Assembly: GCA_036511615.1 (NCBI GenBank)
Contig: DATCBW010000220.1
Coordinates: 1 to 57,990 of the forward strand
DNA: 57,990 nucleotides
DNA from: Verrucomicrobiia bacterium
Lineage (GTDB): Bacteria; Verrucomicrobiota; Verrucomicrobiia; Limisphaerales; UBA11358
Reading direction: 5' to 3'
The position numbers were made by a program, and so were the translations under genes. Shown here one piece after another: positions 9,162-49,792 of this stretch; position 1 is the first letter of the stretch; every line of letters begins with the position of its first letter. Below the pieces are notes generated by a model that was not told where the DNA came from, did no database searches, and worked only from the letters and a program-made list of their open reading frames with translations.

Positions 9162-9584
9162 ATGTCCGTGGATTATCAACAGCTAGAAAAGGTAAAGCCA
9201 CTTTTTGATATTATTTCGTCAATAAGTGCTTTGGTTTTAGCGATTCTGACTGTTCGTGCAATTTATCTTACTAGAGAGGCCTTGAGTGAATCCGCGCGAC
9301 CAGCTATTCGAATTATTCCATTGCTTTCGTCAGACCAAAAACGTCTTAGGCTCAAATTATGTAATGATTCAGAGCATCATGCAAACCGACTAGAAATCAA
9401 AACCAAACCACAAAGCATTTTAGCTCATTTGCCCGCTTTAGGACCTAAAGAAGAACATACTGTCGATTTGGGAGAACTTTCAAAATATTCGTCAGAATCC
9501 CCTCTGGTATTGAAAATAAAATTTCGGAACACAAGGGGCGATAAATTTGTTGCAATTTATGAATCGTCCCTTCCAAACTTATAG
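9162..9584 (+). CDS. Hypothetical single-pass membrane protein (low-GC cassette gene 1)
   Basis: N-terminal TM helix LFDIISSISALVLAILTVRAIYL followed by a beta-rich region. ATG lies 13 nt after the hpnH stop. Sampled line at 32% G+C. Confidence 0.55.
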   Translation: MSVDYQQLEKVKPLFDIISSISALVLAILTVRAIYLTREALSESARPAIRIIPLLSSDQKRLRLKLCNDSEHHANRLEIKTKPQSILAHLPALGPKEEHTVDLGELSKYSSESPLVLKIKFRNTRGDKFVAIYESSLPNL

Positions 9585-9586
9585 TA

Positions 9587-12826: not shown

Positions 12827-13252
12827 GTCGTTTCAGAAAGTGAGAACCGTGTTTGGCAAATTAACATCCTGCAGACCCTGACGACACAGGCCTGCAATCT
12901 TAAACGCAGGCCGGACTTATGGCTTCCAAAAAACTGATGGCATGGCGGGTTAAAAGCCCGGCGGCAACGCCTGAACTCAAGGCGCGTCCGTCCGACCCAA
13001 AGCCAAAAGATCACCCCAGTGTTTCAACAGATTGACATCCGTTAAACCGGGCAGGACGCTAAAACAAAAACTCCTGCGCCGATCCCGCTTGCTGTTGCAA
13101 GGGAGGCAGTCGAATGGGACGGCTGCGTTTGAATTCCGCAACAACCGTGACGGCGGAACCGCCGCGACCACGGCGGCTGGCACGGCGAAACTTTTCGATC
13201 CGATGAGTGTTGCATTATGTAGCGCATGAGTGAACAGTAATGATACATTTTT

Positions 13253-15088: not shown

Positions 15089-15589
15089 ATGCAAACAATT
15101 TTGGGCGTTGACCCGTCGCTGCGCGGCACCGGCTACGGCGTCATCCGCACCGGCAAGCCAAATCCGGTGGCGCTTGCGCAAGGAACGATTTCCTGCCCGA
15201 AGGACTGGGAACGCTCGCGCTGCCTCGCCAAAATTTCGCAGACGCTCCGCGACGTGCTGTTGGCATACAGCCCGGAAGTGTGCGTGATGGAAGGCCTGTT
15301 CTTTGCCCAAAATTTTAAAACGGCCATCGTCATGGGCGAGGCGCGCGGCGCGGCGATGGCAACCATTGCGGAGGCCGGACTCGATATTTATGAAATCGCC
15401 ACGCGCAAGGTGAAGCAGGCCATCGTCGGTCATGGCGCGGCGCAAAAACTCGCCGTTGCCAAAATGGTCCAGCGGATGCTGAACCTCGCCGAACTGCCCG
15501 CACCCGACGCGGCGGACGCCCTGGCACTCGCGCTCGCCCACGCGCAGGAAAATTCGCGAAACGGCCTGACACCGTTGAAGAAAATTTAG
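15089..15589 (+). CDS. ruvC: Holliday junction resolvase RuvC
   Basis: MQTILGVDPSLRGTGYGVI; C-terminal DAADALALALAH. ATG at 15089 preferred to the ORF-track start at 14948. Confidence 0.9.
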   Translation: MQTILGVDPSLRGTGYGVIRTGKPNPVALAQGTISCPKDWERSRCLAKISQTLRDVLLAYSPEVCVMEGLFFAQNFKTAIVMGEARGAAMATIAEAGLDIYEIATRKVKQAIVGHGAAQKLAVAKMVQRMLNLAELPAPDAADALALALAHAQENSRNGLTPLKKI

Positions 15590-15590
15590 G

Positions 15591-15704
15591 ATGATCATGG
15601 CAACGACTTTTATGATTCCTTGGTGGATGGTTATTGCGGCGGTTACAGCCGTGCTTTTGATTGTTGCTTTGATCATTTGGTTAATCCAGCAGTTCAAAGA
15701 TTAG
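15591..15704 (+). CDS. Possible 37-aa hydrophobic micro-protein between ruvC and ruvA
   Basis: Own translation: MIMATTFMIPWWMVIAAVTAVLLIVALIIWLIQQFKD. Starts 2 nt after the ruvC stop and ends 2 nt before the ruvA ATG. Below the ORF-track size cut-off. Confidence 0.3.
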   Translation: MIMATTFMIPWWMVIAAVTAVLLIVALIIWLIQQFKD

Positions 15705-15706
15705 AC

Positions 15707-16312
15707 ATGATCACCTTTCTCAACGGCAAACTCGTCGAGGCGCTGCCCACGCAGGTCATCGTGGACGTGAACGGCGTCGGCTACGAGGCGCTCATTCCGT
15801 TGTCGTCGTTTGACAAGTTGCCCGCGCCCGGCGGCGACGTGAAGCTGCTCACGCAGCTCATCATCCGCGAGGACGCACACACGCTTTACGGATTCATGTC
15901 GGCGGCGGAACGCGACTTGTTCCGCCTGCTCATCAACAGTGTCAGCGGCATCGGCCCGAAAACGGCGCTGAACATTTTGAGCGGCATGAACGTCGTGGTG
16001 TTTCGCGGCGCGGTGGCAAATGGCGACGTGAAATCGCTCTCGCAAATTTCCGGCGTCGGCAAAAAGACCGCCGAGCGCATCGTCGTGGAACTGCGCGACA
16101 AAATCGGCGCGGCCGGCGCGCTGGAGGCCGCGAGCGCAAAGCACGCGCTGTCGCCTGCCGACCAGAAAATGAACGACGCCATCCTTGCGCTCATGGCGCT
16201 GGGCTTCAAGCAAGTCGAGGCGCACGACGCCGTCCGCGCCGCCCAGACGATGCTCGGTGCGGCGGCGTCCGTCGAGCAACTGGTGCGCGCCTGCTTGAAA
16301 AAAGGAGCGTGA
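15707..16312 (+). CDS. ruvA: Holliday junction branch migration protein RuvA
   Basis: MITFLNGKLVE..VNGVGYEALIPLSS; HhH motifs VSGIGPKTALNIL and ISGVGKKTAERIV. Confidence 0.9.
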   Translation: MITFLNGKLVEALPTQVIVDVNGVGYEALIPLSSFDKLPAPGGDVKLLTQLIIREDAHTLYGFMSAAERDLFRLLINSVSGIGPKTALNILSGMNVVVFRGAVANGDVKSLSQISGVGKKTAERIVVELRDKIGAAGALEAASAKHALSPADQKMNDAILALMALGFKQVEAHDAVRAAQTMLGAAASVEQLVRACLKKGA

Positions 16313-17040: not shown

Positions 17041-19401
17041 ATGATCGCCCGCGTCAGTCTTGAAATTGCCCTGCGCAAGGAATTTGATTATTCGATTCCT
17101 GCAAGCTTGGCCGGCCAAATTGACGTGGGCAGCCGCGTGCAGGTGCCGTTCGGCCCGCGCAAAGTTCTGGGCGTCGTCACCGCCGTCGCCGAGGAGTCGG
17201 CACACGCCCGGCTCAAACCGATTTTGAAAGTCATCGGCGCGCAAACTTTGGTGACGCCGAAGGTTTTGAAACTCGCGCGTTGGATTGCCGACTACTACTG
17301 CTGCGCGCCGGAGACCGCACTGAAATCCGTCCTGCCCGAAGCCGTCCGCAAGGAAGACGCCGGCTGGCGCGAACGATTGTTTGTCCGCGCCCTGCCGGCC
17401 GGCGGCGAACTTCCCAAGCTGCCCAAACGCCAGCGGGATGTCTGGAACATTGTCGAAGAGCGCCGGGAGATTTTATTGGCGGAACTCGTCGAACTGGCCG
17501 AAACGACCGCCGCCACTGTGCGCAAACTGGAAGATCGCGGCCTGATTGAAATCACCTCGGAAATTTCCGAGCGCGATCCTTATGCGCGTGAAACCATTTT
17601 GCCGTCGCAACCGCTGGTTTTGAATCCCGCGCAAGCCGTCGCGCTCGAAAAAATCAAAGTGGCGATGAATCGCGGTGAAGATGGCCGACACCTCACCCCG
17701 ACCCTCTCCCCATTGCTCGCAGACTCGCAACGCGGAGAGGGAGAAAAACCATCCTCCATCTTCCATCCTCAATCCTCGACTTTTCTCTTGCACGGCGTGA
17801 CCGGCTCCGGCAAAACGGAAATTTATTTGCAAGCGCTGGCGCACGCGCTGGAACAAGGCAAAGGCGCAATCGTCCTCGTGCCGGAAATTTCGCTGACACC
17901 GCAGACCGTCGAGCGGTTCAAGGCACGGTTCAGTTCGGGAAAATTGCAGACGCTCGTCGCGGTTTTGCATTCGCATTTGAGCGCAGGCGAACGGCACGAC
18001 GAATGGCACAAGATTCGCCAAGGCCGCGCGCGCATCGTCATCGGCGCGCGTTCGGCGATTTTTGCGCCGGTCGAACCGCTCGGCCTCATCATCGTGGACG
18101 AGGAACACGAGACGAGTTACAAGCAGGAGGAAGCGCCGCGCTATCATGCGCGCGACGTGGCCATCATGCGCGGGCAGATGGAAAATGCCGTCGTCGTGCT
18201 CGGCTCGGCCACGCCGTCGCTCGAAAGTTTTTACAATTGCAAACGCGGCAAGTTCACTTTGCTCGAATTGCCGGAGCGCGTGGACAATCAAAAAATGCCG
18301 CACGTCCGCGTCGTGGACATGCGGCAGGCGGCGCACAAGGAAAAGGGCGCGCCGCTGTTTTCGCCGCAGCTCAAGGAAGCGATTAACCAGCGACTTGATC
18401 GCGGCGAGCAGACGATTTTGTTTTTGAACCGGCGCGGCTACTCGACTTCGCTGCAATGCCCGAAGTGCGGTTACGTTTGCAATTGCCCGAATTGCAGCCT
18501 CGCGCTCACGTTTCACCGGCAGGAACAAAAACTCGCCTGCCATATCTGCGGCCACGTTGAAAAAGTTCCGTTGGTTTGTCCGAACGAAAAATGCAAAAAT
18601 CCCGCGATCCGTTTTTCCGGCACGGGCACGCAACGCGTCGAGGAGACGCTCGCCAAACTTTTTCCGAAGGCGCGTATCAAACGCATGGACGCCGACACGA
18701 TGAAGCGCAAGGATGATTACCGCAAAGTCCTCGGCGATTTTCGCGCGGGCAAAATTGACATTCTCGTCGGCACGCAGATGATCGCGAAGGGTCTGCATTT
18801 TCCGAACGTCACGCTCGTCGGCATCATCTATGCCGACCTCGCGCTGCATCAGCCGGATTTTCGCGCGGGCGAACGCACCTTTCAGTTGCTTACGCAAGTC
18901 GCCGGTCGCGCCGGGCGCGGCGACGTGGAGGGCGAGGTGTTTGTGCAGGCGTTCGCGCCGTTTCATCCGGCGATCCAATACGCGCGCCGCCACGACTTCA
19001 ACGGTTTTTACGAACAGGAAATCGAATTCCGCGAACAACTGAAATATCCGCCCGTCAGTCGCGTCGCGCTGCTGACACTCAAGGGCCGTAACGAAGAAAA
19101 GGTGAAATTCTCCGCCGAGCATTTAAGGAAAGTTCTTGAGTCCAAAGTCCAAAGTCCAAAGTCCAAAGTTGCTGCGGGCGAAACGACTTTAGACATTGGA
19201 CATTGGCCTTTGGACTTGATAATCGCCGGGCCGGCACCGGCGCCGTTGCTGCGCGCGGAAACTTTTTATCGCTACCAGATCATGCTGCGGACGCGGGCGA
19301 TGAGCGCGTTGAGCCGCGAACTGGCGCGCATCATTCAATCGCTGGCGCTGCCCGAAGACGTCACGCTGGCCGTGGACATTGACCCGGTGAATTTGGGGTA
19401 G
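17041..19401 (+). CDS. priA: Primosomal replication restart helicase PriA
   Basis: Walker [14 protein letters not shown] box (IIVDEEHE), Cys-rich zinc region CPKCGYVCNCPNCSLALTFHRQEQKLACHICGH, GRAGR. Confidence 0.95.
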   Translation: MIARVSLEIALRKEFDYSIPASLAGQIDVGSRVQVPFGPRKVLGVVTAVAEESAHARLKPILKVIGAQTLVTPKVLKLARWIADYYCCAPETALKSVLPEAVRKEDAGWRERLFVRALPAGGELPKLPKRQRDVWNIVEERREILLAELVELAETTAATVRKLEDRGLIEITSEISERDPYARETILPSQPLVLNPAQAVALEKIKVAMNRGEDGRHLTPTLSPLLADSQRGEGEKPSSIFHPQSSTFLLHGVTGSGKTEIYLQALAHALEQGKGAIVLVPEISLTPQTVERFKARFSSGKLQTLVAVLHSHLSAGERHDEWHKIRQGRARIVIGARSAIFAPVEPLGLIIVDEEHETSYKQEEAPRYHARDVAIMRGQMENAVVVLGSATPSLESFYNCKRGKFTLLELPERVDNQKMPHVRVVDMRQAAHKEKGAPLFSPQLKEAINQRLDRGEQTILFLNRRGYSTSLQCPKCGYVCNCPNCSLALTFHRQEQKLACHICGHVEKVPLVCPNEKCKNPAIRFSGTGTQRVEETLAKLFPKARIKRMDADTMKRKDDYRKVLGDFRAGKIDILVGTQMIAKGLHFPNVTLVGIIYADLALHQPDFRAGERTFQLLTQVAGRAGRGDVEGEVFVQAFAPFHPAIQYARRHDFNGFYEQEIEFREQLKYPPVSRVALLTLKGRNEEKVKFSAEHLRKVLESKVQSPKSKVAAGETTLDIGHWPLDLIIAGPAPAPLLRAETFYRYQIMLRTRAMSALSRELARIIQSLALPEDVTLAVDIDPVNLG
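17702..17741. repeat. Hairpin-containing low-complexity insert inside priA
   Basis: ccctctcc (17702-17709) pairs with ggagaggg (17734-17741). Encodes LTPTLSPLLADSQRGEGE just upstream of the Walker A motif. Followed by a catcct-type simple sequence up to about 17780. Confidence 0.7.
19141..19217. repeat. Heptamer-arm hairpin inside the priA coding sequence
   Basis: Left arm (tccaaag)x4, 16-nt loop, right arm (actttag)(acattgg)(acattgg)(cctttgg)actt. About 24 of 28 arm positions are complementary. Read in frame as SKVQSPKSKVAAGETTLDIGHWPLDL. Confidence 0.9.
19336..19399. repeat. priA 3-prime end, native copy of a triplicated segment
   Basis: caatcgctggcgctgcccgaagacgtcacgctggccgtggacattgacccggtgaatttggggt. 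Recurs at 20224-20282 and 25604-25656. Confidence 0.95.
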
Positions 19402-19436
19402 GAGAATGTAAAATCCGGTTGACAAATTCCTTAAAT

Positions 19437-19453
19437 GAATACAAATTGTATTC
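19437..19453. promoter_or_regulatory. Perfect 8-1-8 palindrome abutting the higB start (candidate HigA/HigBA operator)
   Basis: gaatacaa-a-ttgtattc ends 1 nt before the GTG at 19454. TTGACA at 19419-19424 lies upstream. Confidence 0.5.
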
Positions 19454-19762
19454 GTGCGCATCATCAAGGAAAAGTTTCTGGTGGAGATGGGAAGGAAATA
19501 TCCGAAAGCTGCCAGCCACTTGGAAGCGTGGCGCAAAATTGTCAGGTTGACGATGTGGCGAAATTTGGTGGAAGTGCGCCGGATTTATCCTGACACGGAT
19601 TCGGTGAAAGTCCGCAGCGGGCGGCAAGTGCTGGTGTTCAATATGCGGCGAAATGATTACCGGCTGATTGTCGCGGTGCATTTCAACCGCCAGATTGTTT
19701 ATACTTTGCGTTTTTTGACGCACGCGGAATACAGCAAAGATCGCTGGAAATCTGAATTGTAA
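19454..19762 (+). CDS. higB: Type II toxin HigB-family mRNA interferase
   Basis: 102-aa protein with KYPKAASHLEAWRKIV..YRLIVAVHFNRQIVYTLRFLTHAEYSK, the pattern of the HigB_toxin family. Followed by an HTH antitoxin gene. Confidence 0.8.
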   Translation: MRIIKEKFLVEMGRKYPKAASHLEAWRKIVRLTMWRNLVEVRRIYPDTDSVKVRSGRQVLVFNMRRNDYRLIVAVHFNRQIVYTLRFLTHAEYSKDRWKSEL

Positions 19763-19788
19763 ATTACTTCGCAACAAAACAAAAGATT

Positions 19789-20214
19789 ATGAAAACAGCA
19801 ACTCGACTCAACTTTGCAGCCCTGCCAAAAAACTACGCCGGACTGTGCCAGATTCTCACGCCGCGCCCGATCCACGACAAGGTGGATTATGAGAACGTGA
19901 CAGAGATTACTGACGCAATGGCCGGCCACAAATTGACGGCGGACCAAGATGATTACTTTGACCTGCTCTGCCAATTGATTGAGACCTACGAAAAAGAACA
20001 CGCGCAACTGGACGCGCCAAAAGTCACCGGGCTGGAAATGTTGCAGCATCTTTTGGACGCAAATGACATGAGCGCGGCGGATTTGGCGCGATTGCTGAAT
20101 GTTCACCGGACACTTGGTGCGATGATTTTGCGCGGTGAACGGCAACTCACTTTAGCTCACGTTCAAAAGCTGTCCAATCACTTCGGTGTGTCTGCGGATT
20201 TATTTCTGCCGTAG
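19789..20214 (+). CDS. higA: HigA-family HTH antitoxin
   Basis: C-terminal XRE-type HTH (LEMLQHLLDANDMSAADLARLLNVHRTLGAMILRGERQLTLAHVQKLSNHFGV). Located 27 nt after higB. Confidence 0.8.
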   Translation: MKTATRLNFAALPKNYAGLCQILTPRPIHDKVDYENVTEITDAMAGHKLTADQDDYFDLLCQLIETYEKEHAQLDAPKVTGLEMLQHLLDANDMSAADLARLLNVHRTLGAMILRGERQLTLAHVQKLSNHFGVSADLFLP

Positions 20215-20223
20215 AAAACTGGT

Positions 20224-20282
20224 TCGCTGGCTGCCCGAAGACGTCACGCTGGCCGTGGACATTGACCCGGTGAATTTGGGGT
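20224..20282. repeat. Second copy of the priA 3-prime end
   Basis: 52 consecutive nt identical to 19348-19399 (ctgcccgaag...gaatttggggt), plus tcgctgg upstream across a 2-nt gap. Confidence 0.95.
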
Positions 20283-20328
20283 GAAATTAGAAATTGAATT
20301 ATCCCGTTCTTTGAGGCACACTGGAAAT

Positions 20329-20508
20329 GTGAAAGCGACAATTAAGCAACCCGCTAAATCCGAGGCTGAATTGCTGGATCACGCCACGAATAATCTTTTG
20401 CGCGGACTCAAGCGCGATATGCAGAAGAAAGACGGTCGCGTGAACTACGACAAACTTCGCAAAGATGGTTACAGTGACCGTTTGCTGGCCAAGCTGGAAC
20501 AGGCTTGA
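20329..20508 (+). CDS. Conserved 59-aa protein, copy 1 (paralogue of 25703-25882)
   Basis: VKATIKQPAKSEAELLDHATNNLLRGLKRDMQKKDGRVNYDKLRKDGYSDRLLAKLEQA aligns without gaps to copy 2. GTG start inferred from that alignment. Confidence 0.5.
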   Translation: MKATIKQPAKSEAELLDHATNNLLRGLKRDMQKKDGRVNYDKLRKDGYSDRLLAKLEQA

Positions 20509-20511
20509 TTT

Positions 20512-20715
20512 CTACTCATTCTTGCGCAGTCGCATAAATTCCGAAACGGTGATGTCGAGCAATGGCGCGGCTTTGCGTGCCTGATTCATGGCATCCGAAT
20601 AGGCCAATCCTGTGGACATCTGACGCACAATCCGTTCCGTTGTCCAACCGCGCGCCTTGGCCATTTGAATGCTCGCTTTCAACTCAGTGTAACGCAAAAT
20701 GTTTTCTTCGCTCAT
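20512..20715 (-). CDS. Hypothetical 67-aa protein, last gene of the ParB operon
   Basis: MSEENILRYTELKASIQMAKARGWTTERIVRQMS... No motif recognised. ATG at 20715 chosen, 20 nt below the upstream stop. Confidence 0.4.
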   Translation of the reverse strand: MSEENILRYTELKASIQMAKARGWTTERIVRQMSTGLAYSDAMNQARKAAPLLDITVSEFMRLRKNE

Positions 20716-20734
20716 GGCTGTAGGTTTTGGCTCG

Positions 20735-21664
20735 TCAGATATAAATTTCCGCAAATCTTTTCAGTTGAGGTTTTATATCTGCTGGCACAAGTTGGAAAAG
20801 TTTCTCATTTTGCATAATCGGTCGAATAACATTAACCGCGAGTGAAATTTCATGCTTAATTTCTTTTAAGTCCTTTTCTGCATCTTTCAATTCAGCTTCG
20901 CGGAGTTCAACATCTTTAGAAAGCATCTCCATTTCTGATGCGCTAATTTTGGGACGAGAAACAGAAGCTCGTTTTTGTTTTTTTCTTTTTAACTTCATCG
21001 CAACTCTTTCCGGCTTGCAATAGAAGTCTGGATTTTGATCTGGGTGATATTTCTTGCGAATGTCTTGATGAAGTTTTCCGCCTGATAGTTTTTTGAAATC
21101 AGCTTTCTTGTCACGCCAGATGCGCTTCTGTCCTGTGTCCGTCATGCCATCGAACACGCGAGCAGAATGTTCAGTTATTTGACCGCTATCAACCGCCTTC
21201 TGGACTTCAGGAATAAGTTTGCCCACTACCAACCAATTATGGATGGTTGTCGCGTCAACACCGAGATATTCGCCAACTTCCTTATTGTTCATTTTGAAGT
21301 TTGCCATTAGCGTTTTTATCAAAGAAGCGCGTTGACTCGGGAATAAATCTTGCCGGTGTTCATCCAAAATGAAACGGATGCGATCACGATATTCTTCCGG
21401 TGGAACTCCTTTGGGCAAATCATCAATGACACACGGCACTTGGAGATGTTTCAAATATTTTGCAACCTCTAATCGTCGGAAGCCATCAATAAGCACAAAC
21501 TTTCCGTCATTTAATTTTGAAACAACCAAAGGTTGTTGAATTCCAGTCCGTTCAATCGAGTGTCGCAATTTGTCATCTTCGACAACATCGCCTGAACGCC
21601 GGTATTTATCCGGCACTTGTATTTGAGTGATTTTGATCGATTCTGCTTGGCTAACATTTTTCAT
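20735..21664 (-). CDS. ParB/Srx-fold + HTH protein (ParB-like 2)
   Basis: N-domain QPLVVSKLNDGKFVLIDGFRRLEVAKYL, then HTH MNNKEVGEYLGVDATTIHNWL, then a K/E-rich coiled tail. About 40% G+C. Confidence 0.75.
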   Translation of the reverse strand: MKNVSQAESIKITQIQVPDKYRRSGDVVEDDKLRHSIERTGIQQPLVVSKLNDGKFVLIDGFRRLEVAKYLKHLQVPCVIDDLPKGVPPEEYRDRIRFILDEHRQDLFPSQRASLIKTLMANFKMNNKEVGEYLGVDATTIHNWLVVGKLIPEVQKAVDSGQITEHSARVFDGMTDTGQKRIWRDKKADFKKLSGGKLHQDIRKKYHPDQNPDFYCKPERVAMKLKRKKQKRASVSRPKISASEMEMLSKDVELREAELKDAEKDLKEIKHEISLAVNVIRPIMQNEKLFQLVPADIKPQLKRFAEIYI

Positions 21665-22545
21665 CTTGCCTCCATTGTTTGAATTACTTGTGCGAATTCA
21701 GAGAAATCAACGCCTTCTTTTTTCAAAGCTAGTTTCATTTCAGGCATTACGAGCAATTGCTTAAGATTGCTCGGTCCCAACGCCCAATGAAGCCGTCTTA
21801 ATTTCAACAAAGTGCGCGCTTCGCTCAATGCTTTGTCGAGATCACGAAGTGAAGATCGAAGCGTATTCTTTGAAAGATTTCCTGTTTGCCTCAAATCCTT
21901 TGTCTTTTTTACGAGAGCTCTAATTTGGTCAGAACCTAAATTTTCCTCTTTCAATACTTCCACGACAATTTCTTGGTCTTTCGCGTCGAGAGATGCCAAT
22001 GCTTCGGCATCATTCATGGAAAGTTTCTGAATTTCTCCTTCTTTCATTAACTTTGAAGAGGCATGCCCTAAAGTCCGCAGATATTTATAAACGTGTCCCG
22101 TAGTGACGAAATATTTTTTCTTGATCTCTTCAACTCCGATACCGCGTTCGATGTCCTGTTTAACTAATTGAGCACGCTCAAACCAACTCAATCGTTTTCT
22201 CATCACGTTTTCTGCCAAAAACCGGCCAACAATTTCTTCCTCTGGAACATCAATTATCATTGCAGGGATTTTAGGCAGTTCAAGTTCACGAAATGCCTGT
22301 AGACGTCCCTGCCCGCATATTAATTCGTAATTGTAAAGCCCTCCATCATTTCGCCGGCGATCCGAATGAGACCACTTTGTAATGTCTCGGACCTGAATCG
22401 GCTGCTTCAAGCCGACAGCGCTGATGCTTTCTTTCAAGCGCGCGTATGCACCTTGGGCGCGACTGCGCCTGACAAAATATTTTATCTCATCAATCTTAAT
22501 TTCAACAACTTCAACTTTAGTTGATTCATTAGTGTTATGGTTCAT
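21661..22545 (-). CDS. ParB/Srx-fold + HTH protein (ParB-like 1)
   Basis: QPIQVRD..YELICGQGRLQAFRELELPKIPAMIID, ParB-like box RFLAENVMRKRLSWFERAQL, HTH-like VEEIKKKYFVTTGHVYKYLR. ATGA overlap with the next gene. Confidence 0.75.
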   Translation of the reverse strand: MNHNTNESTKVEVVEIKIDEIKYFVRRSRAQGAYARLKESISAVGLKQPIQVRDITKWSHSDRRRNDGGLYNYELICGQGRLQAFRELELPKIPAMIIDVPEEEIVGRFLAENVMRKRLSWFERAQLVKQDIERGIGVEEIKKKYFVTTGHVYKYLRTLGHASSKLMKEGEIQKLSMNDAEALASLDAKDQEIVVEVLKEENLGSDQIRALVKKTKDLRQTGNLSKNTLRSSLRDLDKALSEARTLLKLRRLHWALGPSNLKQLLVMPEMKLALKKEGVDFSEFAQVIQTMEAR

Positions 22546-22565
22546 ATTTGTCCTTTCGCTAAAAA

Positions 22566-23018
22566 CTATCCGTTTTCACGAAGCAAGTCAAGCGCCCTTT
22601 CAAACAACTGACTGACCCGCTGCTTGCTTACACCGTAACTTTTTGCAATTTGAGAAAATGACTCGCGTTCACCATCAAAACCCAAATGTCTGATTACAAC
22701 ATTTCTTTCCCGATTGGGAAGAATCGTTAAATCCTTTGCAAGTTTCCGAGACAATTCTTGATTGCATATGTCAGAAAATGGCGTTTGTTCATTTGTAAAA
22801 GCATCTTCGTTTTCGCGCACAACAAAATCACCGTTGGCTTTATACACAAATAGACTTTCAATAATCGCGCGCATAAATTTCCCATTGATCATGCGTTCGC
22901 AAAAACAATTACCTGCTTGAGACGAGGCCAAGTTTTCCGGTAAGTTCTGCATAATCTTTTTCGGGTCTTGTCGGCAAAGCCATAAGCGACCTTGGTTGCC
23001 AGTTCTTCCGATTGGCAC
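22566..23018 (-). CDS. Sigma-70 region-4-like HTH protein (C-terminal half of a possibly split sigma factor)
   Basis: LPNRERNVVIRHLGFDGERESFSQIAKSYGVSKQRVSQLFERALDLLR is a region 4.2-type HTH. The N-terminal about 40 aa of the ORF overlap 22889-23185 in another frame. Confidence 0.55.
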   Translation of the reverse strand: MPIGRTGNQGRLWLCRQDPKKIMQNLPENLASSQAGNCFCERMINGKFMRAIIESLFVYKANGDFVVRENEDAFTNEQTPFSDICNQELSRKLAKDLTILPNRERNVVIRHLGFDGERESFSQIAKSYGVSKQRVSQLFERALDLLRENG

Positions 23019-23185
23019 GCGCGCAATTTTTTGAGGAAGATTTTATCTTGAAACGCTTCCACGATTAAATCCTGCCGAATGTCATCAGTGCTTCTCTGGC
23101 AGACTGCACCAATCCTGCGATACGCTTGCACAGCAACCTTGTTCGCTATAGCGATTAGCAAACTTTCAGTCTCGTTGTTTGTCAT
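22889..23185 (-). CDS. Sigma-70 region-2-like protein (N-terminal half of a possibly split sigma factor)
   Basis: MTNNETESLLIAIANKVAVQAYRRIG...DDIRQDLIVEAFQ resembles ECF region 2.1/2.2. The frame ends at 22889 inside the other ORF. Confidence 0.45.
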   Translation of the reverse strand: MTNNETESLLIAIANKVAVQAYRRIGAVCQRSTDDIRQDLIVEAFQDKIFLKKLRACQSEELATKVAYGFADKTRKRLCRTYRKTWPRLKQVIVFANA

Positions 23186-23365
23186 ATATTTCTGTTTCCA
23201 TTTAATACAGCCCATTTAATCACATGCCGTCAAGAGGTTCATGATTCATTTATCATCACTCATTTGAGCTTACAAGGTTTTAAGTTTTGTTCAAATCTAT
23301 TTTGTCATGTTTCATTCGATTAAAAACTACCTGAAAATGAACGCTTTATGCCGTTCTTCTATTTT

Positions 23366-23614
23366 TCATTTGCCGATGGCGCGAACGCTGTGTTTTATTT
23401 TTTTAATTCCACGTTGCCACAAATCAAAATAATACAGCGCGACGACGACGAGGGAGTGGCCGGTTTTTTCGTCGGCGACGAGTTTCGGGATTTCCGCGAC
23501 GGGCACGAGGTGCGTGATCAAATCTTCGCCGCTGTCGAATTCCACGCCGTGTTGCAGGCGGCAGTTTTCAACCAGCACGGTGCAGGTGACGTTGCTCAAG
23601 ATCGCGGGATTGGA
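23366..23614 (-). pseudogene. 3-prime fragment of a NUDIX hydrolase gene (duplicate of 28101-28316)
   Basis: 23399-23614 aligns base for base with 28101-28316 at roughly 90% identity by eye. Encodes only ...VLVENCRLQHGVEFDSGEDLITHLVPVAEIPKLVADEKTGHSLVVVALYYFDLWQRGIKK. The NUDIX box is missing. Confidence 0.85.
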
Positions 23615-23652
23615 ATGGCCGCTTCAACGTTTTGACAATTCAGCTTTTCGAG

Positions 23653-25482
23653 TTACAGCGATTTGACTTTTTTCACAATTGCGGGGGCGTCAATGCCGAA
23701 CGCGGCCATCAGTTCCGCCGCGTGGCCGGAGCGCGGCAGGCCGTTGACGGCGAGCTTGTGGACTTTGATGCCTTCGCTGCTCAATTCGCCGGCAACCGCG
23801 TCACCGAGTCCGCCTTCAGTGTAATGATCTTCAACGGTGATGACGGTGTTGTTCGTCTTTTGCGCGGCAGCGAGAATTTCCTTTTTGCCGAGCGGTTTGA
23901 TGCTGTAGGCGTCAATGACCGTGATGTTGATGCCTTCGACCTTCAACGTGTCGGCTGCTTTCAAGGCTTCAAACAACGTGACGCCCGCCGCGACGACGGT
24001 GACTTTGTCGCCCGTGCGCAGAACTTTTGCGCCGCCGATGGGGAACTGTTCGTCGTTGCCGTAAATGACCGGCGTTTTCGGACGCGAGGTGCGCAGGAAG
24101 CAGAGGCCTTTGTGCTGCGCCATTTGTTCCAGCAATTTTTCGGTGGCCACGGCTTCGGCGGGATACAGCACCGTGCTGCCGACGATGGCGCGCATCAGCG
24201 CAATGTCTTCCAGCGCCATCTGCGACGGGCCGTCTTCGCCGATGCTGATGCCGACGTGCGAGCCGACGAGCTTGAGGTTCGACTGCGAAATGCCCGCGAC
24301 GCGAATCTGGTCGGCGGCGCGGGTGAAGAACGTCGCGAACGTCGAGGCGAACGGCACATGACCGCGCGTGGCAAAACCGACCGAGACGGCGACGAGATTT
24401 TGTTCCGCGATGAAACATTCAATGGAGCGTTCGGGAAATTTCTTGAAAAATTTTTCCGCGTAGGTGGAATTTTTCGTGTCGCCGTCCAGCGCATTGATGC
24501 GCGGATCGGCATCGCCAAGGCGGACGAGCGCTGTGCCGTAGGCTTCGCGGGTGGCGATCTGGTCGCCGAGCTTGTAGCTGATGGCTGCGTAGCCTGCGGG
24601 TGCGGTGAGATTTGGCGCAGGCAATGGCGTCGGTGCAGGAATCGCCACGCCGAGGCCGGACTTGGCGCTGGGCTGAAGTTCGGCGATGGCCTGCGCGGCT
24701 TCTTCCTTGTTCAACGGCTTGCCGTGCCAGCCGTCTTTGTCCTGCACAAAAGAAATGCCCGCGCCCTTGTAGGTCTTGGCGATGATGGCGAGCGGCTGGT
24801 CGTTCAGGCCGACGCCGCTCAACACTTCGACAATTTCCTCGATGTCATGGCCGTCAATTTCCTCGACGCGCCAGCCGAACGCCTTGAAACGGTCGCGATA
24901 GACATTGATGTCATGGCCGAACGCCGTGGCCTGGCTCTGGCCGAGGCGGTTCGCGTCCACAATGGCGATGAGATTGTTCAGCTTGTAAATGCCCGCGATG
25001 TTCGCGGCTTCCCAGACCGCGCCTTCGGCGATTTCGCCGTCGCCCATCAAAACGTAGGTGTTGAAATCCAGCTTGTCCTGGCGCGCGGCGAGCGCCATTC
25101 CGGCACCGATGCCGAGGCCCTGGCCGAGCGAACCGGTCGCCACATCGGCAAACGCCAGGCGCGGCGTGGGATGACCTTCCAGTTCGCTGGTGAACTGGCG
25201 GAGCGTCAGCAGTTCGGGAATCGGCACAAAACCATTTTCCGCCCACGCGGCGTAAAGCAGCGGTGCGGCGTGGCCTTTGGAGAGAATGAACCGGTCGTTG
25301 TTGTAAAAATGCGGATTCTTCGCGTCATATTTCATGTGGCCGAAGAACAGCGTCGCCACAATGTCCGCCGCCGAGCAGCACGAAGTCGGATGTCCGCTGC
25401 CCGCCGCCGTCGTCGCCTCGATGGAATGAATGCGCAACTGGTTGGCGATGCCTTTCAAAAGTTCAATGTCAGTATCAATCAT
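23653..25482 (-). CDS. tkt: Transketolase
   Basis: AAGSGHPTS, GDGEIAEG, GEDGPSQMALEDIA. Full three-domain length. ATG at 25482 (MIDTDIELLKG). Confidence 0.95.
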   Translation of the reverse strand: MIDTDIELLKGIANQLRIHSIEATTAAGSGHPTSCCSAADIVATLFFGHMKYDAKNPHFYNNDRFILSKGHAAPLLYAAWAENGFVPIPELLTLRQFTSELEGHPTPRLAFADVATGSLGQGLGIGAGMALAARQDKLDFNTYVLMGDGEIAEGAVWEAANIAGIYKLNNLIAIVDANRLGQSQATAFGHDINVYRDRFKAFGWRVEEIDGHDIEEIVEVLSGVGLNDQPLAIIAKTYKGAGISFVQDKDGWHGKPLNKEEAAQAIAELQPSAKSGLGVAIPAPTPLPAPNLTAPAGYAAISYKLGDQIATREAYGTALVRLGDADPRINALDGDTKNSTYAEKFFKKFPERSIECFIAEQNLVAVSVGFATRGHVPFASTFATFFTRAADQIRVAGISQSNLKLVGSHVGISIGEDGPSQMALEDIALMRAIVGSTVLYPAEAVATEKLLEQMAQHKGLCFLRTSRPKTPVIYGNDEQFPIGGAKVLRTGDKVTVVAAGVTLFEALKAADTLKVEGINITVIDAYSIKPLGKKEILAAAQKTNNTVITVEDHYTEGGLGDAVAGELSSEGIKVHKLAVNGLPRSGHAAELMAAFGIDAPAIVKKVKSL

Positions 25483-25603
25483 AAATTGTAAGAGCGGAAA
25501 GAGTAGCCGACGGACGACGAAAGCCAAGAATGAAAATTGGAAAATCGCGAATCCCGTCATCGCAGACGACGGATAAACCTTGTTCTGTCCGGCGCGAACG
25601 ACT

Positions 25604-25656
25604 CAATCGCTGGCGCTGCCCGAAGGCGTCACGCATTGATCCGGTGAATTTGGGGT
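25604..25656. repeat. Third, diverged copy of the priA 3-prime end
   Basis: caatcgctggcgctgcccgaaggcgtcacgc-attgatccggtgaatttggggt. First 22 nt are identical to 19336-19357. There is an 11-nt gap and 2 mismatches relative to the native copy. Confidence 0.9.
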
Positions 25657-25702
25657 GAGTTTTAGGATTGAATTCCGCACGATTTCATTTTATTGCAAAG
25701 AC

Positions 25703-25882
25703 ATGAAAATTGCCGCTGCAAAACGAGAAAAGAGCGAAGCCCAATTGCTGGATCAAGCGACTGACAATCTTTTGCACGCCGTCAAACGGGAAATGATCAA
25801 GAAACAAGGCCGCGTGGATTATGGCAAGCTGCGCAAAGATGGTTACAGCGACCGTATTCTTACAAAGTTGAAAGAAGCCTGA
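25703..25882 (+). CDS. Conserved 59-aa protein, copy 2
   Basis: MKIAAAKREKSEAQLLDQATDNLLHAVKREMIKKQGRVDYGKLRKDGYSDRILTKLKEA. Same length and register as 20329-20508. Confidence 0.5.
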   Translation: MKIAAAKREKSEAQLLDQATDNLLHAVKREMIKKQGRVDYGKLRKDGYSDRILTKLKEA

Positions 25883-25913
25883 AATTTAACGAGGTTGTTC
25901 TTGCAATTATGTT

Positions 25914-25928
25914 GACGATGTGTCACAA
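25914..25928. promoter_or_regulatory. 15-nt motif gacgatgtgtcacaa upstream of the methyltransferase gene (candidate C-box, or cassette boundary repeat)
   Basis: Identical 15-mer recurs at 28086-28100 upstream of the C gene. Contains the palindromic core tgtg-t-caca. Confidence 0.5.
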
Positions 25929-25940
25929 GTTATCCGGCAG

Positions 25941-27107
25941 ATGTTAAACGGAACAACAACTCAAAACGTGCTTCTGGAAGTGCCGGTTGCTTATCGCGCC
26001 CGTCAGAAACGACCAAAGCTCGGTCGTTACGAAAGCATCCGTAAAAAATTTGAGAATGACACTTCCGACGCGGCAAAAGTGTTTGTTGAGTTCAATGAAA
26101 AGGTTTCCATCCCGAACGGCTTTCAGTTTATTGATTTATTTTGCGGCGCGGGCGGAATGACTTGCGGCTTGACTCGCGCGGGCTACACGGCGCGAGCGGC
26201 GGTGGAGATTGTGGACGTTCCCTGCGATACGCATCACCGCAATTTTCCAAAATGCAAACTGCATCGCGGTTCAATTCAGGATTTCAATCTAAAATCCTTG
26301 TCGGATGAATTCGGGCAAATTCATTTGGTCGCTGGTGGGCCGCCGTGTCAGGGATTTTCCGTGGCAGGATTCCGAAATCCAGAAGACGAGCGTAACCAGT
26401 TGTTCCGCGAATTCATGCGCGTCGTCAAGACCGTCAAGCCGTGGTATGTCATCATGGAAAATGTGCCGGGCATTTTGACGTTGGCGGGCGGGGATTTTTA
26501 TCGTGCCATCATCGAAGCATTCGGCGAAGCAGGCTATCCGACAGTTTCAGTTGCTGTTTTGGAGTCGGCAAATTACGGCGTGCCGCAATTTCGTCCGCGA
26601 GCGATTTTCATCGCAAACCGTTTTGGCCGCAGCAATCCGTTTCCACTGCCGCAATTGACGTCGGGAAATTATCGCCCGATTGAAAGCGCGCTGCACGGTT
26701 TGTCTGCAAACGAGCCTTCGGCGGAAATTAATCACGAGTGGACGAAGCACTCAAAGGAAATGGAAAAACGTCTGGCCAAAGTTCCGCCCGGCGGCTCGCT
26801 TTACGAAACATTTTTTGACGCTTGGAAACGCCAGTATCCCGGATTGCCGAGCATGACGATCAAGGAAAATCACGGCGGCACGCACATTCATCCGCATTTG
26901 AACCGCGTTTTGTCCGCGCGTGAAATGGCGCGGCTGCAAACTTTTCCTGACGATTTCATTTTTTGCGGGACAATGAAAAAAGCCATGTGGCAGATTGGCA
27001 ACGCCGTTCCGCCAAGGTTGGCGGAAGTCATTGGAAAAACTTTGCTGCCTTCATTGCAAGCGTTGGCAGACAAACAGCCGGACCCGTTTGCGTCGCTTTC
27101 TAACTAG
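25941..27107 (+). CDS. DNA (cytosine-5)-methyltransferase
   Basis: Motif I FIDLFCGAGGMTCGL, IV GGPPCQGFS, VI IMENVPGIL, VIII QFRPRAIFIA, X GNAVPPRL. ATG at 25941 preferred to GTG at 25920. Confidence 0.92.
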   Translation: MLNGTTTQNVLLEVPVAYRARQKRPKLGRYESIRKKFENDTSDAAKVFVEFNEKVSIPNGFQFIDLFCGAGGMTCGLTRAGYTARAAVEIVDVPCDTHHRNFPKCKLHRGSIQDFNLKSLSDEFGQIHLVAGGPPCQGFSVAGFRNPEDERNQLFREFMRVVKTVKPWYVIMENVPGILTLAGGDFYRAIIEAFGEAGYPTVSVAVLESANYGVPQFRPRAIFIANRFGRSNPFPLPQLTSGNYRPIESALHGLSANEPSAEINHEWTKHSKEMEKRLAKVPPGGSLYETFFDAWKRQYPGLPSMTIKENHGGTHIHPHLNRVLSAREMARLQTFPDDFIFCGTMKKAMWQIGNAVPPRLAEVIGKTLLPSLQALADKQPDPFASLSN

Positions 27108-27803
27108 CGGTTTTTGGAACAGAAAGTTTGAGGTTCAACGCCTCGCGCCAATTTGCGAAGTCATACCAGCCGCAACCAACGCAGCCTTTTTCCGCTTCGA
27201 CTCCAATCGGCGGAATATTTTTCGGCCAGTCTTCCTTGCCGTGGTAGAAAAACTCAATTCCGAAAGGCATTCCGCGTTTGCCATTTTTGAAACAATTTTC
27301 ACACGCACAGCTTTTGAGCAGATTGTGGTTGCCGCCTGCGTCAAATTTGAGCAGTTGAAATTTTTGTTCGATTTCAGCTTCCGAAATCTCCGACGAATGT
27401 TTGGTTTCCGTCGTTCCCCAACGAATCATTGGAAAACGATGGTCAACAATCAATTCGTGCGATGGGTGCTCGCGTTGTTCAATGACGTTCGCGTATCCAA
27501 AATGGGCGAGAATTTTCTTTTTCAAAGCTGCTGAAATTCCCGCCGGGGCGTTTGAGATTTGAAATCTCCCGTCCACCTGTCCCATCGCGTCTTGCGTTTG
27601 CACTGTGCGCAATGATCCGTCTTCGATTCGATTTTCAGGCCGGAACGTGCGCTCGTGCCGCGCTGCAATCCTTGGATTCCGCCGCCACCGGCAAGCTGTC
27701 CGCTTGGAATTCGTTTGTATTCGTGCGAGCGGCAATGCCATTTGGTGTCCTGCAAGACGGCCAGAACTTTCGACTGCAAACTTCCCTTCTTTGGCTTGTT
27801 CAT
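27100..27803 (-). pseudogene. HNH-like restriction endonuclease candidate, reading frame interrupted
   Basis: N-part MNKPKKGSLQSKVLAVLQDTKWHCRSHEY...CAQCKRKTRWDRWTGDFKSQ (frame of 27522-27803). C-part ...ILAHFGYANVIEQREHPSHELIVDHRFPMIRWG..GNHNLLKSCACENC (frame of 27100-27885). Total span is 704 nt, so it is 1 nt short of being in frame. Confidence 0.55.
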
Positions 27804-28048
27804 CGGCTTTTCCCTTTCGCCTTTGCTTCCAAGCCGCGCAACAATTCTTCGGTCGTGATGCCAAACCCTTTTGCGACTTTGACAATCGCGGTCAGCGACG
27901 GATTGCGGACGCCACGTTCAAGCCCGGAAATGTAAGTCCGATCCAAGTCGGCGCGTTCCGCGAATTCTTCCTGTGAAATGCCAAGCGAATTGCGCCGTTC
28001 GGCAATAAGTTTGCCAAAACTTTCGAGAGTTAGTTTTCGCTCGGACAC
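27800..28048 (-). CDS. XRE-family HTH controller (C) protein of the R-M system
   Basis: RRNSLGISQEEFAERADLDRTYISGLERGVRNPSLTAIVKVAKGFGI. 82 aa. Its stop overlaps the endonuclease ATG by 4 nt, the classic C-R operon arrangement. Confidence 0.75.
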   Translation of the reverse strand: MSERKLTLESFGKLIAERRNSLGISQEEFAERADLDRTYISGLERGVRNPSLTAIVKVAKGFGITTEELLRGLEAKAKGKSR

Positions 28049-28072
28049 GCCACCAGTTAAAAGGCACGTTGC

Positions 28073-28100
28073 CGATGTGTCTATGGACGATGTGTCACAA
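28073..28100. promoter_or_regulatory. Motif pair cgatgtgtc / gacgatgtgtcacaa upstream of the C gene
   Basis: cgatgtgtc (28073-28081), a 4-nt spacer, then gacgatgtgtcacaa (28086-28100). The second element overlaps the NUDIX stop codon at 28095-28097. Confidence 0.5.
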
Positions 28101-28652
28101 CTTTTTAATTCCCCGCTGCCACAAATCGAAATGATACAGCGCGACGACGACGAGGGAGTGGCCGATTTTTTCGTCGGCGACGAGTTTCGGAATTTCCGCG
28201 ACGGGCACGAGGCGCGTGATCAAATCTTCGCCGCTGTCGAATTCCACGCCGTGTTGCAGGCGGCAGTTTTCAATCAGCACAGTGTAAGTGACGTTGCTCA
28301 GAATGGCGGGGTTGGACCAGATTTTTCCGAGCAGGCGCGCGTTTTCGCCTTCGTAGCCGGTTTCCTCGCGCAATTCGCGCACGGCGGTCGCCACTGGGTC
28401 AGTTTCATTCGCGTCCATCATGCCGCCGGGAATTTCCAGTTCCACCGTGCCGGAGCCGCAGCGGTATTGCTGAACCATCACCAGTTTCTGGTCGGGCGTG
28501 ACGGCGACGACGTTGACCCAGTTGACGCTGTCGAGGACGAAGAAATCGTGCTCCTTGCCGGTGCGCGGATTGACGCAGGTGTCGGAGCGGATTTTGAAGA
28601 TGCGAAAATCTCCGGCGGGTTTGGAACTGATTTTTTTCCAAGGTTTAATCAT
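28095..28652 (-). CDS. NUDIX hydrolase (ADP-ribose pyrophosphatase-like)
   Basis: NUDIX box GGMMDANETDPVATAVRELREETGY. 185 aa. Confidence 0.88.
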   Translation of the reverse strand: MIKPWKKISSKPAGDFRIFKIRSDTCVNPRTGKEHDFFVLDSVNWVNVVAVTPDQKLVMVQQYRCGSGTVELEIPGGMMDANETDPVATAVRELREETGYEGENARLLGKIWSNPAILSNVTYTVLIENCRLQHGVEFDSGEDLITRLVPVAEIPKLVADEKIGHSLVVVALYHFDLWQRGIKKL

Positions 28653-49212: not shown

Positions 49213-49757
49213 ATCCCAAATTTTACTGGTTTATTCACTTCGCCCGCCAACCGGCCTTTTCATCAGGGTCGCACGCAAGTCAAGCGTGCGACGAGCCATT
49301 ATTCAAGCGAAAATATTAAAAGTTTGACCATGACTGCTTGAACACCGCATTCGAATCGTCTTAAGTTTTTGGAAAAAAACGACTTAAATCAACTCAAGCC
49401 GCCGATTATCCTGCACCGGGCAAAAAATATTTCGTTCAAACAAATGACTCTTAACAGCGTCACAGTTTTTAAGGCATTGCCTCGAAAGTTTCGAGGACAA
49501 CATATTAACTCTTGTTCACGAGTTATTCACATCGGGCGAACCTGCGATAAAATGGACGTTTCGGCGCAGTTATGAATCGCTAAAATGGAGCAGCGGGAAA
49601 AATGTTCAAAGCAATTCCTGCAAACATCCGTGGGCGATGGGCGCGCAAATTGCACTTCAAACAAGCTGGGATTGGTTTAGGCAAATCGCCGGCAACGACC
49701 GGAACCTAATAGCCGACCAGTTTTTCAAATAGATGTGCTTATACTTTTAGATATGCG
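49213..49757. other. Candidate oriC / dnaA control region
   Basis: One perfect DnaA-box match TTATTCACA (49523-49531). Near matches ttattcact (49231-49239) and ttatcctgc (49406-49414). AT-rich from about 49700. dnaA and hemL diverge from this region. Confidence 0.3.
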
Positions 49758-49786
49758 TTGACAATAATAAGTGAGTATGATTTAAT
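49758..49786 (+). promoter_or_regulatory. Near-consensus sigma-70-type promoter
   Basis: TTGACA (49758-49763), 17-nt spacer, TTTAAT (49781-49786). Confidence 0.45.
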
Positions 49787-49792
49787 GATTGC

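Follow-up and report, generated by a model that had tools for sequence, protein, structure and literature searches.

What do two paralogous ParB-like proteins do when they are encoded beside a small sigma factor-like protein and away from any ParA partner? The question is raised by a contig of 57,990 bp from a metagenome-assembled genome (MAG) of the Verrucomicrobiae (DATCBW010000220.1; the whole stretch is referred to here as the window), within which an open reading frame (ORF) cluster at 20512-23215 contains four minus-strand genes in the order sig2-sig4-ParB1-ParB2, hereafter the cassette. A preliminary description of this DNA, made from its sequence alone, proposed a candidate defence or mobile genetic element (MGE)-control module; its observations were largely right and its interpretation half right, the MGE-control module being the better half of the proposal. 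The cassette forms a four-gene operon that was acquired horizontally, has its own promoter and originates from an MGE. With regard to function, it is tentatively viewed, at slightly less than an even chance, as an MGE-derived gene-control or maintenance module in which a nucleoside triphosphate (NTP)-gated ParB clamp would work with a sigma-like partner, orphaned here in an insertion hotspot. No paper describing the cassette was found in the literature.

The four genes are tightly packed on the minus strand. The first, sig2 (22889-23185; 98 amino acids), is followed by sig4 (22566-22892; approximately 108 amino acids), the start ATG of which at 22892 overlaps the TGA stop codon of sig2 (ATGA, 22889-22892); beyond a spacer of 20 nt lies the gene for ParB1, the 'a-type' protein (21661-22545), which in turn overlaps that of ParB2, the 'b-type' protein (20735-21664), in a second ATGA at 21661-21664. 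These coordinates bear out the minus-strand ORFs, the second overlap and the spacers of approximately 20 nt of the preliminary description, but not its five-gene operon; the fifth ORF, orf67 (20512-20715, minus strand; 67 amino acids, 19 nt beyond ParB2), is native to the locus, where it is convergent with the small gene p75, and it is found beside priA in relatives that lack any cargo. The start of sig2 was placed at the ATG at 23185 because the alternative, longer ORF of 108 amino acids beginning at 23215 spans the conserved -10 box of the promoter, and on sister contigs the gene was independently called with 98 amino acids. The notion that sig2 and sig4 are two halves of a sigma factor requires correction: they are separate, translationally coupled genes, and a single sigma gene split by a frameshift was ruled out, the two being separate ORFs in all loci, usually with the ATGA overlap. 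The G+C content between 20.7 and 23.35 kb is 36-47%, compared to 55-66% in priA and tkt (the earlier estimates were 40% and 60%), and it is low in every host that carries the cassette. An independent ENA assembly (L209; 99.8% identity over 10 kb) shows the same whole arrangement. As had been noted, ParA, Rep, conjugation and recombinase genes are all absent from the neighbourhood of the cassette in the window, and a search of 18.5-29.5 kb against Rfam matched zero RNA families.

That both larger proteins are paralogues of the ParB fold, as was initially described, was confirmed by profile searches. The Pfam domain ParB_N was detected in ParB1 (3e-10) and ParB2 (4e-8), HTH_ParB in ParB2 (6e-11), and both proteins exceed the curated cut-off of TIGR00180, with 60.9 and 65.8 bits, respectively. 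ParB1 is composed of a ParB-CTPase N-domain, a helix-turn-helix (HTH) DNA-binding domain and a helical C-terminal domain, and ParB2 of ParB_N, HTH_ParB and a charged coiled C-terminal region. A profile of 20 ParB1 sequences matched Spo0J in the PDB (2e-14), together with Noc and ParB, across the N-domain and HTH. An AlphaFold2 (AF2) model, made of ParB1 only (mean predicted local distance difference test score, pLDDT, 81), was most similar by Foldseek to Myxococcus ParB with CDP or CTPgammaS (7e-12); after the CTP/CDP-bound ParB proteins of Myxococcus and Bacillus came Noc and KorB (KorB, E=3e-9), all with a probability of 1.0. Box II of ParB1 reads GQGR and box III AENxxR, with G78, G80, R81 and VGRFLAEN..R invariant in the family. 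Judged by sequence and predicted fold, ParB1 is a canonical clamp-type ParB-CTPase and not a protein of the DUF262/DndB type. The CGQGR motif, previously likened to the DGQQR and DGQHR motifs of DUF262 proteins (GmrSD, SspE) and DndB, is in fact ParB box II (GxxR); kinship to the latter proteins was rejected, as no DUF262 or DndB match was obtained with Pfam or PADLOC and the best folds are those of canonical ParB. Neither a nuclease domain nor dnd/ssp genes were found near the cassette.

The nucleotide-binding motifs of ParB-CTPase clamps, boxes II and III, are thus present in full in ParB1 and only in part in ParB2. The latter has GFRR as box II, and the position of box III is occupied by a conserved LDEHRQDL; relative to Noc (phmmer, 1e-10), Leu stands in place of the catalytic Glu of box III, and Asp in place of Asn. 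This variant box III is retained in 30/30 relatives and it is therefore a fixed feature rather than decay. The nucleotide specificity of ParB-CTPases is predicted neither by sequence nor by AF3 (PMC12704722).

The assignment of sig4 as a region-4-like protein was upheld. Its C-terminal sigma-70 region-4 HTH was recognized by Pfam Sigma70_r4 (E=2e-9, above the gathering score), as were its counterparts in L002 (8e-13) and L086 (3e-6), both also above the gathering score, and it matches the C-terminal half (positions 85-163) of the extracytoplasmic function sigma factor profile TIGR02937 at E=6.5e-10, just under the curated cut-off. The same HTH gives weak matches to the Pfam family KORA (E approximately 0.02). 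With sig2, the corresponding assignment to sigma region 2 found no profile or structure test in its favour. This helical protein is a member of a narrow orphan family of only 15 representative clusters, all of approximately 100 amino acids (exhaustive phmmer search of 1.84 billion representative proteins), and it gave zero matches in Pfam, NCBIfam, PHROGs, PADLOC and a PDB profile search. Sigma70_r2 was not detected in it even at E<=10, nor when its sequence was fused to that of sig4, and comparison by hhalign to sigma factors (RpoE and that of L136, below) returned probabilities of <1%. A single-sequence AF2 model is all-helical, with a pLDDT of 55; it is unreliable and too poor for a structure search. 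An identity as sigma region 2 found no support in these profile, hhalign, fused-sequence and phmmer tests, all negative, and sig2 occupies the 'region 2' slot by position only. In one locus, L136, the same slot is filled by a single sigma ORF of 203 amino acids with both Sigma70_r2 (1.5e-8) and Sigma70_r4 (1e-7), which served as a control for the region-2 search; by its domain content, this full sigma supports a sigma-type function for the slot and says nothing direct about sig2.

The operon appears to be equipped with its own control region. As read from the DNA, the putative promoter/operator at 23186-23343 (minus strand) contains AACATGACAAAAT at 23299-23311, followed by TTGAAC at 23289-23294 and then by a second CATGA box, while the core promoter in the window consists of a -35 element TTGACG (23228-23233), an 18-nt spacer and a -10 element TGTATT (23204-23209). 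The layout CATGAC-N8-11-TTGAC, approximately 60 nt, then CCCTTGACGA-N17-18 and a TGTAAT-like element, is conserved upstream of sig2 in 12 loci, despite ParB1 identities of only 60-87%. Its motifs indicate a conserved promoter of the sigma-70, or housekeeping, type, and the conserved CATGAC boxes that flank it are probably autoregulatory. The promoter motif is present as a single copy in the window and in each exact-match locus; no extra copies that might define a regulon were found. Nucleotide homology to L006, L124 and L133 stops at 23334-23343.

Conservation of the cassette as a unit, a check called for in the preliminary description, was assessed by iterated searches over the ORFs of 42 close loci. 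ParB1 has approximately 80 relatives, which share 40-100% identity with it and come almost entirely from soil metagenomes and from MAGs of Verrucomicrobia or Planctomycetota. ParB2 is encoded directly 3' of ParB1 in 35/39 loci, the remaining four contigs being truncated, and sig4 lies upstream of ParB1 in 17 non-redundant loci of Planctomycetota-Verrucomicrobiota-Chlamydiota (PVC) bacteria. The complete order sig2-sig4-ParB1-ParB2 is found in 11 non-redundant loci; six further loci, comprising the L004 clade and a Planctomycete clade, have sig4-ParB1-ParB2, with a different ORF of approximately 100 amino acids before sig4 in five. No additional genes are conserved beside the cassette among the close loci. 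The ParB pair and the sigma-like genes are hence conserved together, orphan and without ParA.

None of the four ORFs is disrupted in any locus, and ratios of nonsynonymous to synonymous substitution (dN/dS) are 0.09-0.12 for the ParB proteins and 0.17-0.28 for the small genes (sig2, 0.17-0.20; sig4, 0.19-0.28). Purifying selection is also seen between L006 and L124, which occupy one chromosomal insertion site. Between L086 and L129, the flanks are 71-75% identical and the cassette 70%; flanks and cassette being equally diverged, this standalone cassette has been long inherited vertically. These data bear on the suggestion that the cassette is a decaying, functionless remnant of a partition or regulation cassette. 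Rep and integrase genes are indeed absent here, and in one of the loci that do possess an integrase (L001) it is already broken, but the intact ORFs with dN/dS values of 0.09-0.28, the conserved promoter and translational coupling, and the retention of orthologous standalone copies over approximately 30% nucleotide divergence leave this explanation largely refuted and barely tenable. Likewise, the possibility of a decayed cassette considered in the preliminary description is not borne out, since inheritance is vertical at fixed sites, the promoter is kept and selection is purifying. The cassette is not a pseudogene remnant.

The majority of copies stand alone between housekeeping genes. In L006, L124 and L133, the cassette lies between hemN and hemY, and the nucleotide identity of L006 to the window (83.6%) is confined to 20733-23334. 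In L086 and L129, it adjoins a gene for SDH_protease, with NusA/IF2 close by in L086; the cassettes of L008 and L132 are also standalone, that of L140 is located between genes for a glycosyltransferase and a tRNA synthetase, and that of L146 beside a hydrolase gene. No target-site duplications or att-like repeats flank the standalone cassettes. The fullest known context is found instead in an approximately 6.5-kb rolling-circle replicon that integrates at tRNA-Asn, of which the cassette is the left-end module. In both L001 and L002, the order is attL, cassette, a gene for a 124-amino acid protein (p124), a rolling-circle Rep (REP_ORF2-G2P), small ORFs, a tyrosine integrase and tRNA-Asn. Direct repeats of 21-22 nt lie approximately 6.5 kb apart, that of L001 corresponding to the 3' end of the tRNA, and the left copy is found approximately 50 nt upstream of the cassette promoter; since the repeats enclose it, the cassette forms the left end of a small integrative element. 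On a short contig, L130, the gene for the 124-amino acid protein and then that for Rep follow the cassette before the contig ends. The window itself lacks these hallmarks, having neither a Rep nor a tyrosine integrase gene, nor att repeats at a tRNA. Homologues beside rep had been proposed as a sign of a decayed partition or regulation cassette; Rep is indeed encoded directly 3' in L001, L002 and L130, but the standalone copies are the majority. In L002, two attL-like copies are present upstream of the 6.5-kb element (8180-8343 and 9189-9210, compared with 15580-15761), one with a 3' fragment of tRNA-Asn, an arrangement suggesting that a further small element or its remnant (164-amino acid ORF at 8554-9048) was added in tandem at the same tRNA-Asn.

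The location of the cassette directly upstream of Rep in these three loci recalls a module that would partition or stabilize the excised circle, operating independently of ParA or with the ParA of the host, the chromosomal copies then being leftovers. Consistent with this, both ParB proteins surpass the curated cut-off of TIGR00180, and distant relatives possess a RepB partition domain and reside on plasmids. Such a role is nevertheless improbable: in none of the homologous loci do the annotated flanks contain a ParA gene, the ParA-binding motif [LFI]G[KR]G[LFI] occurs in 0/29 ParB1 and 0/30 ParB2 family members (0/59 in all), the RepB Pfam domain was undetected in the ParB proteins of the window, and the standalone copies have nothing to partition and yet display purifying selection and vertical inheritance. 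The view that a plain partition role is unlikely was accordingly sustained by the missing ParA and ParA-binding motif.

Relatives of the ParB pair were also found without the sigma-like genes. Three phage-like contigs of approximately 53 kb (L087-L089) encode ParB1 and ParB2 relatives of 42-46% identity, together with ERF, YqaJ, DnaB, VRR_NUC and HNH genes; in L087, the pair adjoins an integrase and is transcribed opposite to the flanking blocks. A search of BFVD returned only generic viral ParB folds, and the GenBank collection of cultured phages a single weak match. More distant ParB1 relatives (27-37% identity), with CGQGRL and ENxxR, belong to Phycisphaerae, Rhodobacteraceae, Acetobacter, rhizobial and Pseudomonas plasmids and IMG/VR proviruses. 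In 142/164 of these distant loci, the genes form an overlapping trio encoding a serine recombinase of approximately 520 amino acids (Resolvase and Recombinase domains), ParBa and ParBb, the two ParB proteins carrying the RepB Pfam domain; RefSeq names them 'recombinase family protein' and, twice, 'plasmid partitioning protein RepB C-terminal domain-containing protein'. An example is provided by pAtC58 (ATU_RS24145-24135; L212, 3430-6769), and others by L213 and L215. ParB1 matches ParBa at 52-72 bits and never ParBb, while ParB2 matches ParBb weakly, at 19 bits only; a full-length alignment of the trio and cassette proteins reveals shared motifs. By these scores, ParB1 is the orthologue of ParBa, and given both pairs of matches the duplication into a- and b-types predates both kinds of module. 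The two ParB types are arranged alike in the trio and the cassette, a before b and with their genes overlapping, and CGQGRL and ENxxR are common to ParBa and ParB1; the modules differ in that the recombinase lies upstream in the one and sig2 and sig4 in the other, and in the RepB domain, which is confined to the trio. Going by gene order, the recombinase slot is taken by sig2 and sig4 in the PVC clade, whereas trio loci come from Proteobacteria, Phycisphaerae and IMG/VR proviruses and lie on chromosomes as well as plasmids. The trio appears to be widespread and undescribed: no paper on a recombinase-ParB-ParB trio was found in the literature, and a PADLOC search with it was negative. A divergent gene for a 126-amino acid HTH protein is located upstream in approximately 50 trio loci of Rhodobacteraceae, and genes resembling TniQ, TniB and TniA, as judged by eye from the translations, lie downstream in 10-12.

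With this arrangement in mind, the ParB proteins may be envisaged as accessory DNA-architecture factors for site-specific recombination, the recombinase being supplied in trans, and they may then contribute to rearrangements of the hotspot. The 142 trios, the orthology of ParB1 with ParBa (52-72 bits), the tyrosine integrase beside the pair in L087, and the direct repeats of gene ends (53-230 nt) around inserted modules in the window and L006 are all compatible with such a role. Set against these are the absence of the large serine recombinase from every close-family locus, the filling of its slot by sigma-like proteins, including the full sigma of L136, and the lack of att-like or target-site repeats around standalone cassettes, and the proposal is considered decidedly improbable.

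Several copies of the cassette keep company with defence or toxin-antitoxin (TA) genes. The L004 cassette borders a TA-rich island, and in the Planctomycetaceae chromosome of L012 a Toll/interleukin-1 receptor (TIR) protein of the CAP12/Pycsar-effector type (302 amino acids; 12096-13004; E=5e-26) is encoded approximately 270 nt downstream of ParB2. An anti-phage or anti-MGE function, or superinfection exclusion, can thus be imagined: related DNA entering the cell would be loaded with the clamp, and the sigma-like factor would silence it or upset its regulation. This is unlikely, if less so than other alternatives, and it draws on the small, self-contained and patchily distributed operon of low G+C under purifying selection, on its location in variable regions, with as neighbours the higBA and restriction-modification (R-M) genes in the window, the TA-rich island of L004, the TIR protein of L012 and another in L001, and on the lysogeny-side position of the L087 pair, beside the integrase and opposite to the flanking blocks. 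However, PADLOC was empty for all four proteins and for the trio, a recognizable effector (nuclease, toxin or NADase) is absent, the cassette forms an integral end of a replicon, beside Rep, and co-location with TA and R-M genes is expected of any hotspot cargo. Nor was the affinity to known defence systems implied by the preliminary description recovered, PADLOC-DB 2.0 yielding only sub-threshold, HTH-level matches (E>0.006).

The cassette belongs to a known kind, the orphan ParB-CTPase modules of mobile elements; its twin-ParB core and the interchangeable partners of that core are distinctive. Orphan ParB-CTPases are enriched on MGEs, and ParB-Sigma70 fusions have been reported (PMC12704722). 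With plasmid RK2, the ParB-family clamp KorB regulates promoters together with the small HTH protein KorA (PMC11790492), and TrbA is a second partner of the KorB clamp (PMC13584720). The cassette resembles these systems in combining, on an MGE, an orphan-type ParB-CTPase bearing an HTH with a small HTH partner, and KorB is among the Foldseek matches of ParB1; it differs in having two ParB proteins rather than one and, as partners, a sigma-70 region-4 HTH and a second, orphan protein. RK2 also has IncC (ParA), whereas the cassette is without ParA, and no cassette operator was found. On ICEclc, the CTP clamp BisD activates element promoters with a separate, RNA polymerase-directed factor, BisC, in a manner dependent on the arginine of GxxR (PMC12409273). 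Here too, a ParB-like clamp on an integrative element is coupled with a separate partner, but BisD has a fused activator domain and its partner is FlhC-like, while those of the cassette are sigma-like, and the cassette is borne by a 6.5-kb rolling-circle replicon or by no element at all. With ParABS and Noc, it has in common the ParB_N and HTH architecture, the TIGR00180 match and the best sequence and fold matches in the PDB; in contrast, it has no ParA, no ParA-binding motif and no parS that was found, but two divergent paralogues and a sigma-like partner. Two further systems are alike in idea only and serve as leads. SigO-RsoA of Bacillus subtilis is a two-subunit sigma factor, and late transcription in phage T4 involves a split sigma (gp55 and gp33) coupled to the DNA-tracking sliding clamp gp45. 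The likeness to both, a split sigma and, with T4, a clamp in addition, is not based on sequence, and sig2 differs in having no detectable region 2.

Given these precedents, the gene-control or maintenance module introduced above may be outlined as follows. ParB1, with its intact ENxxR and GxxR motifs, and ParB2, with its variant pocket and obligate co-encoding, would load on DNA as an NTP-gated clamp, possibly as a ParB1-ParB2 heteromer. Together with its partner sig2, sig4 would then tie the clamp to -35-type promoter sites or to RNA polymerase, and the module would switch or silence the genes of its element and its own promoter, as KorA and TrbA do for KorB, and BisC for BisD. The copy in the window has neither Rep nor integrase and persists as a selected, self-contained module in the hotspot between orf67 and NUDIX. 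For the host of such orphan copies, immunity to or interference with related elements is a possibility, as is selfish persistence of the cassette.

Some of the observations weigh against this proposal. With most chromosomal copies, there are no element genes to regulate, and the module must therefore act on its own. No ParB binding site was found by palindrome scans: the search for parS, covering inverted repeats and positionally conserved palindromes, gave only a palindrome inside parB2 that is not conserved across clades. No sigma similarity is detectable in sig2. Finally, the nearest large group of relatives pairs the twin ParB proteins with a serine recombinase and not with a transcription factor, a pairing by which the ParB pair could serve recombination or DNA topology instead of transcription. 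A bolder form of the gene-control proposal, regarded as improbable, would have a heteromeric NTP-gated clamp acting with a bipartite sigma-like factor as a bacterial-MGE counterpart of the T4 system, the twin ParB proteins being a 'clamp adaptor' that brings different DNA enzymes to their sites, and orphan chromosomal copies could give immunity to, or interfere with, related elements. If true, the adaptor role would be a general one, as hundreds of other elements couple the same ParB pair to a serine recombinase.

The insertion hotspot that holds the cassette was delineated by comparison with related loci. In the relatives L205-L208, the native order is RuvC, RuvA, DUF374, PriA, p75, the convergent orf67, an AT-rich spacer of approximately 190 nt, NUDIX, a gene for a 63-amino acid protein and two peptidyl-prolyl isomerases. 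The cassette of the window occupies exactly the spacer between orf67 and NUDIX, and in L204 this same spacer contains a gene for a 173-amino acid protein, with the RuvC-RuvA-DUF374-PriA-p75 synteny kept. The orf67 protein is retained beside p75 in L204, its DNA is 80% identical at the cargo-free sites of L205-L208, and the only homologue in other cassette loci is that of L124. The left bracket, p75A (20281-20508, plus strand; 59-75 amino acids), is directly 3' of priA and resembles 25655-25882; p75 is a conserved Verrucomicrobial family with >634 homologous clusters. A perfect 53-nt copy (20230-20282, plus strand) of the 3' end of priA at 19347-19399 precedes it, and a third copy of this end is found at 25591-25674. 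The right bracket of this copy of the hotspot (copy A) is a displaced 3' fragment of NUDIX (23385-23614, minus strand), the 230 nt of which are 91% identical to 28087-28316. The brackets given in the preliminary description, a priA 3' repeat, a 59-amino acid gene and a NUDIX fragment, are thus real, with the amendment that orf67 and p75 belong to the locus and not to the cassette.

Beyond the NUDIX fragment comes tkt (23615-25656), apparently native (G+C approximately 60%) and situated between that fragment and the priA 3' fragment both here and in L209, and then a second, diverged copy of the brackets. This copy B (25591-28652) comprises the priA 3' fragment, p75B (51% amino acid identity with p75A), a C5 methyltransferase, a type II restriction enzyme, a C-protein and the full NUDIX gene (28095-28652), its cargo being a C-controlled type II R-M system. 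The proposal of two hotspot copies with alternative cargo holds and can be extended: the site is empty in L205-L208, has the 173-amino acid protein gene in L204, and carries the cassette in copy A and the R-M system in copy B.

Other small insertions were noted at these loci. In the window, the TA pair higBA (19454-20214) has been inserted just after priA with one perfect 53-nt copy of the priA 3' end on each side (19347-20282), the pattern that Campbell-type insertion of a small circle with a gene end would leave. In L006 (11838-12700), a TA-like module of two genes and approximately 780 nt interrupts hemY at its 5' end, and the start of hemY is repeated around it (60 nt, 92% identical). In these Verrucomicrobia, small modules may repeatedly be inserted in this way, with 50-60-nt duplicates of a gene end on either side. 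The p75/orf67 pair is found beside the cassette at hemN/hemY in L124 (3259-3687, compared with 20310-20715 of the window) and is cleanly missing from L006, the sequence of which is otherwise 93% identical; the convergent pair may itself be a small mobile unit. Elsewhere in the window, a second island of low G+C (42%; 9162-11365) between two radical-SAM genes contains an ORF of 140 amino acids and a 592-amino acid P-loop protein with weak matches to AAA_22, NACHT, AAA_16 and PADLOC MkoA, a candidate defence insertion of the signal transduction ATPase with numerous domains (STAND) type, and the G+C content dips to 0.47 at 49001-50000, compared with approximately 0.57 on either side.

For soil Verrucomicrobia, these loci document a defined insertion hotspot of the form priA-p75-orf67/cargo/NUDIX. 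More generally, ParB-CTPases are now seen as switches with functions beyond chromosome segregation, and few of them (KorB, BisD, Noc and VirB) have a known job. To these, the cassette adds an obligate and divergent ParB pair, the nucleotide-pocket motifs of which depart from the canonical ones in complementary ways, and a dedicated sigma-like partner split over two genes. Together with the trio, it constitutes a natural series in which one twin-ParB core is combined with either transcription factor-like proteins or a large serine recombinase, and it makes testable the question of whether a ParB clamp may function as an adaptor for different DNA-acting partners.

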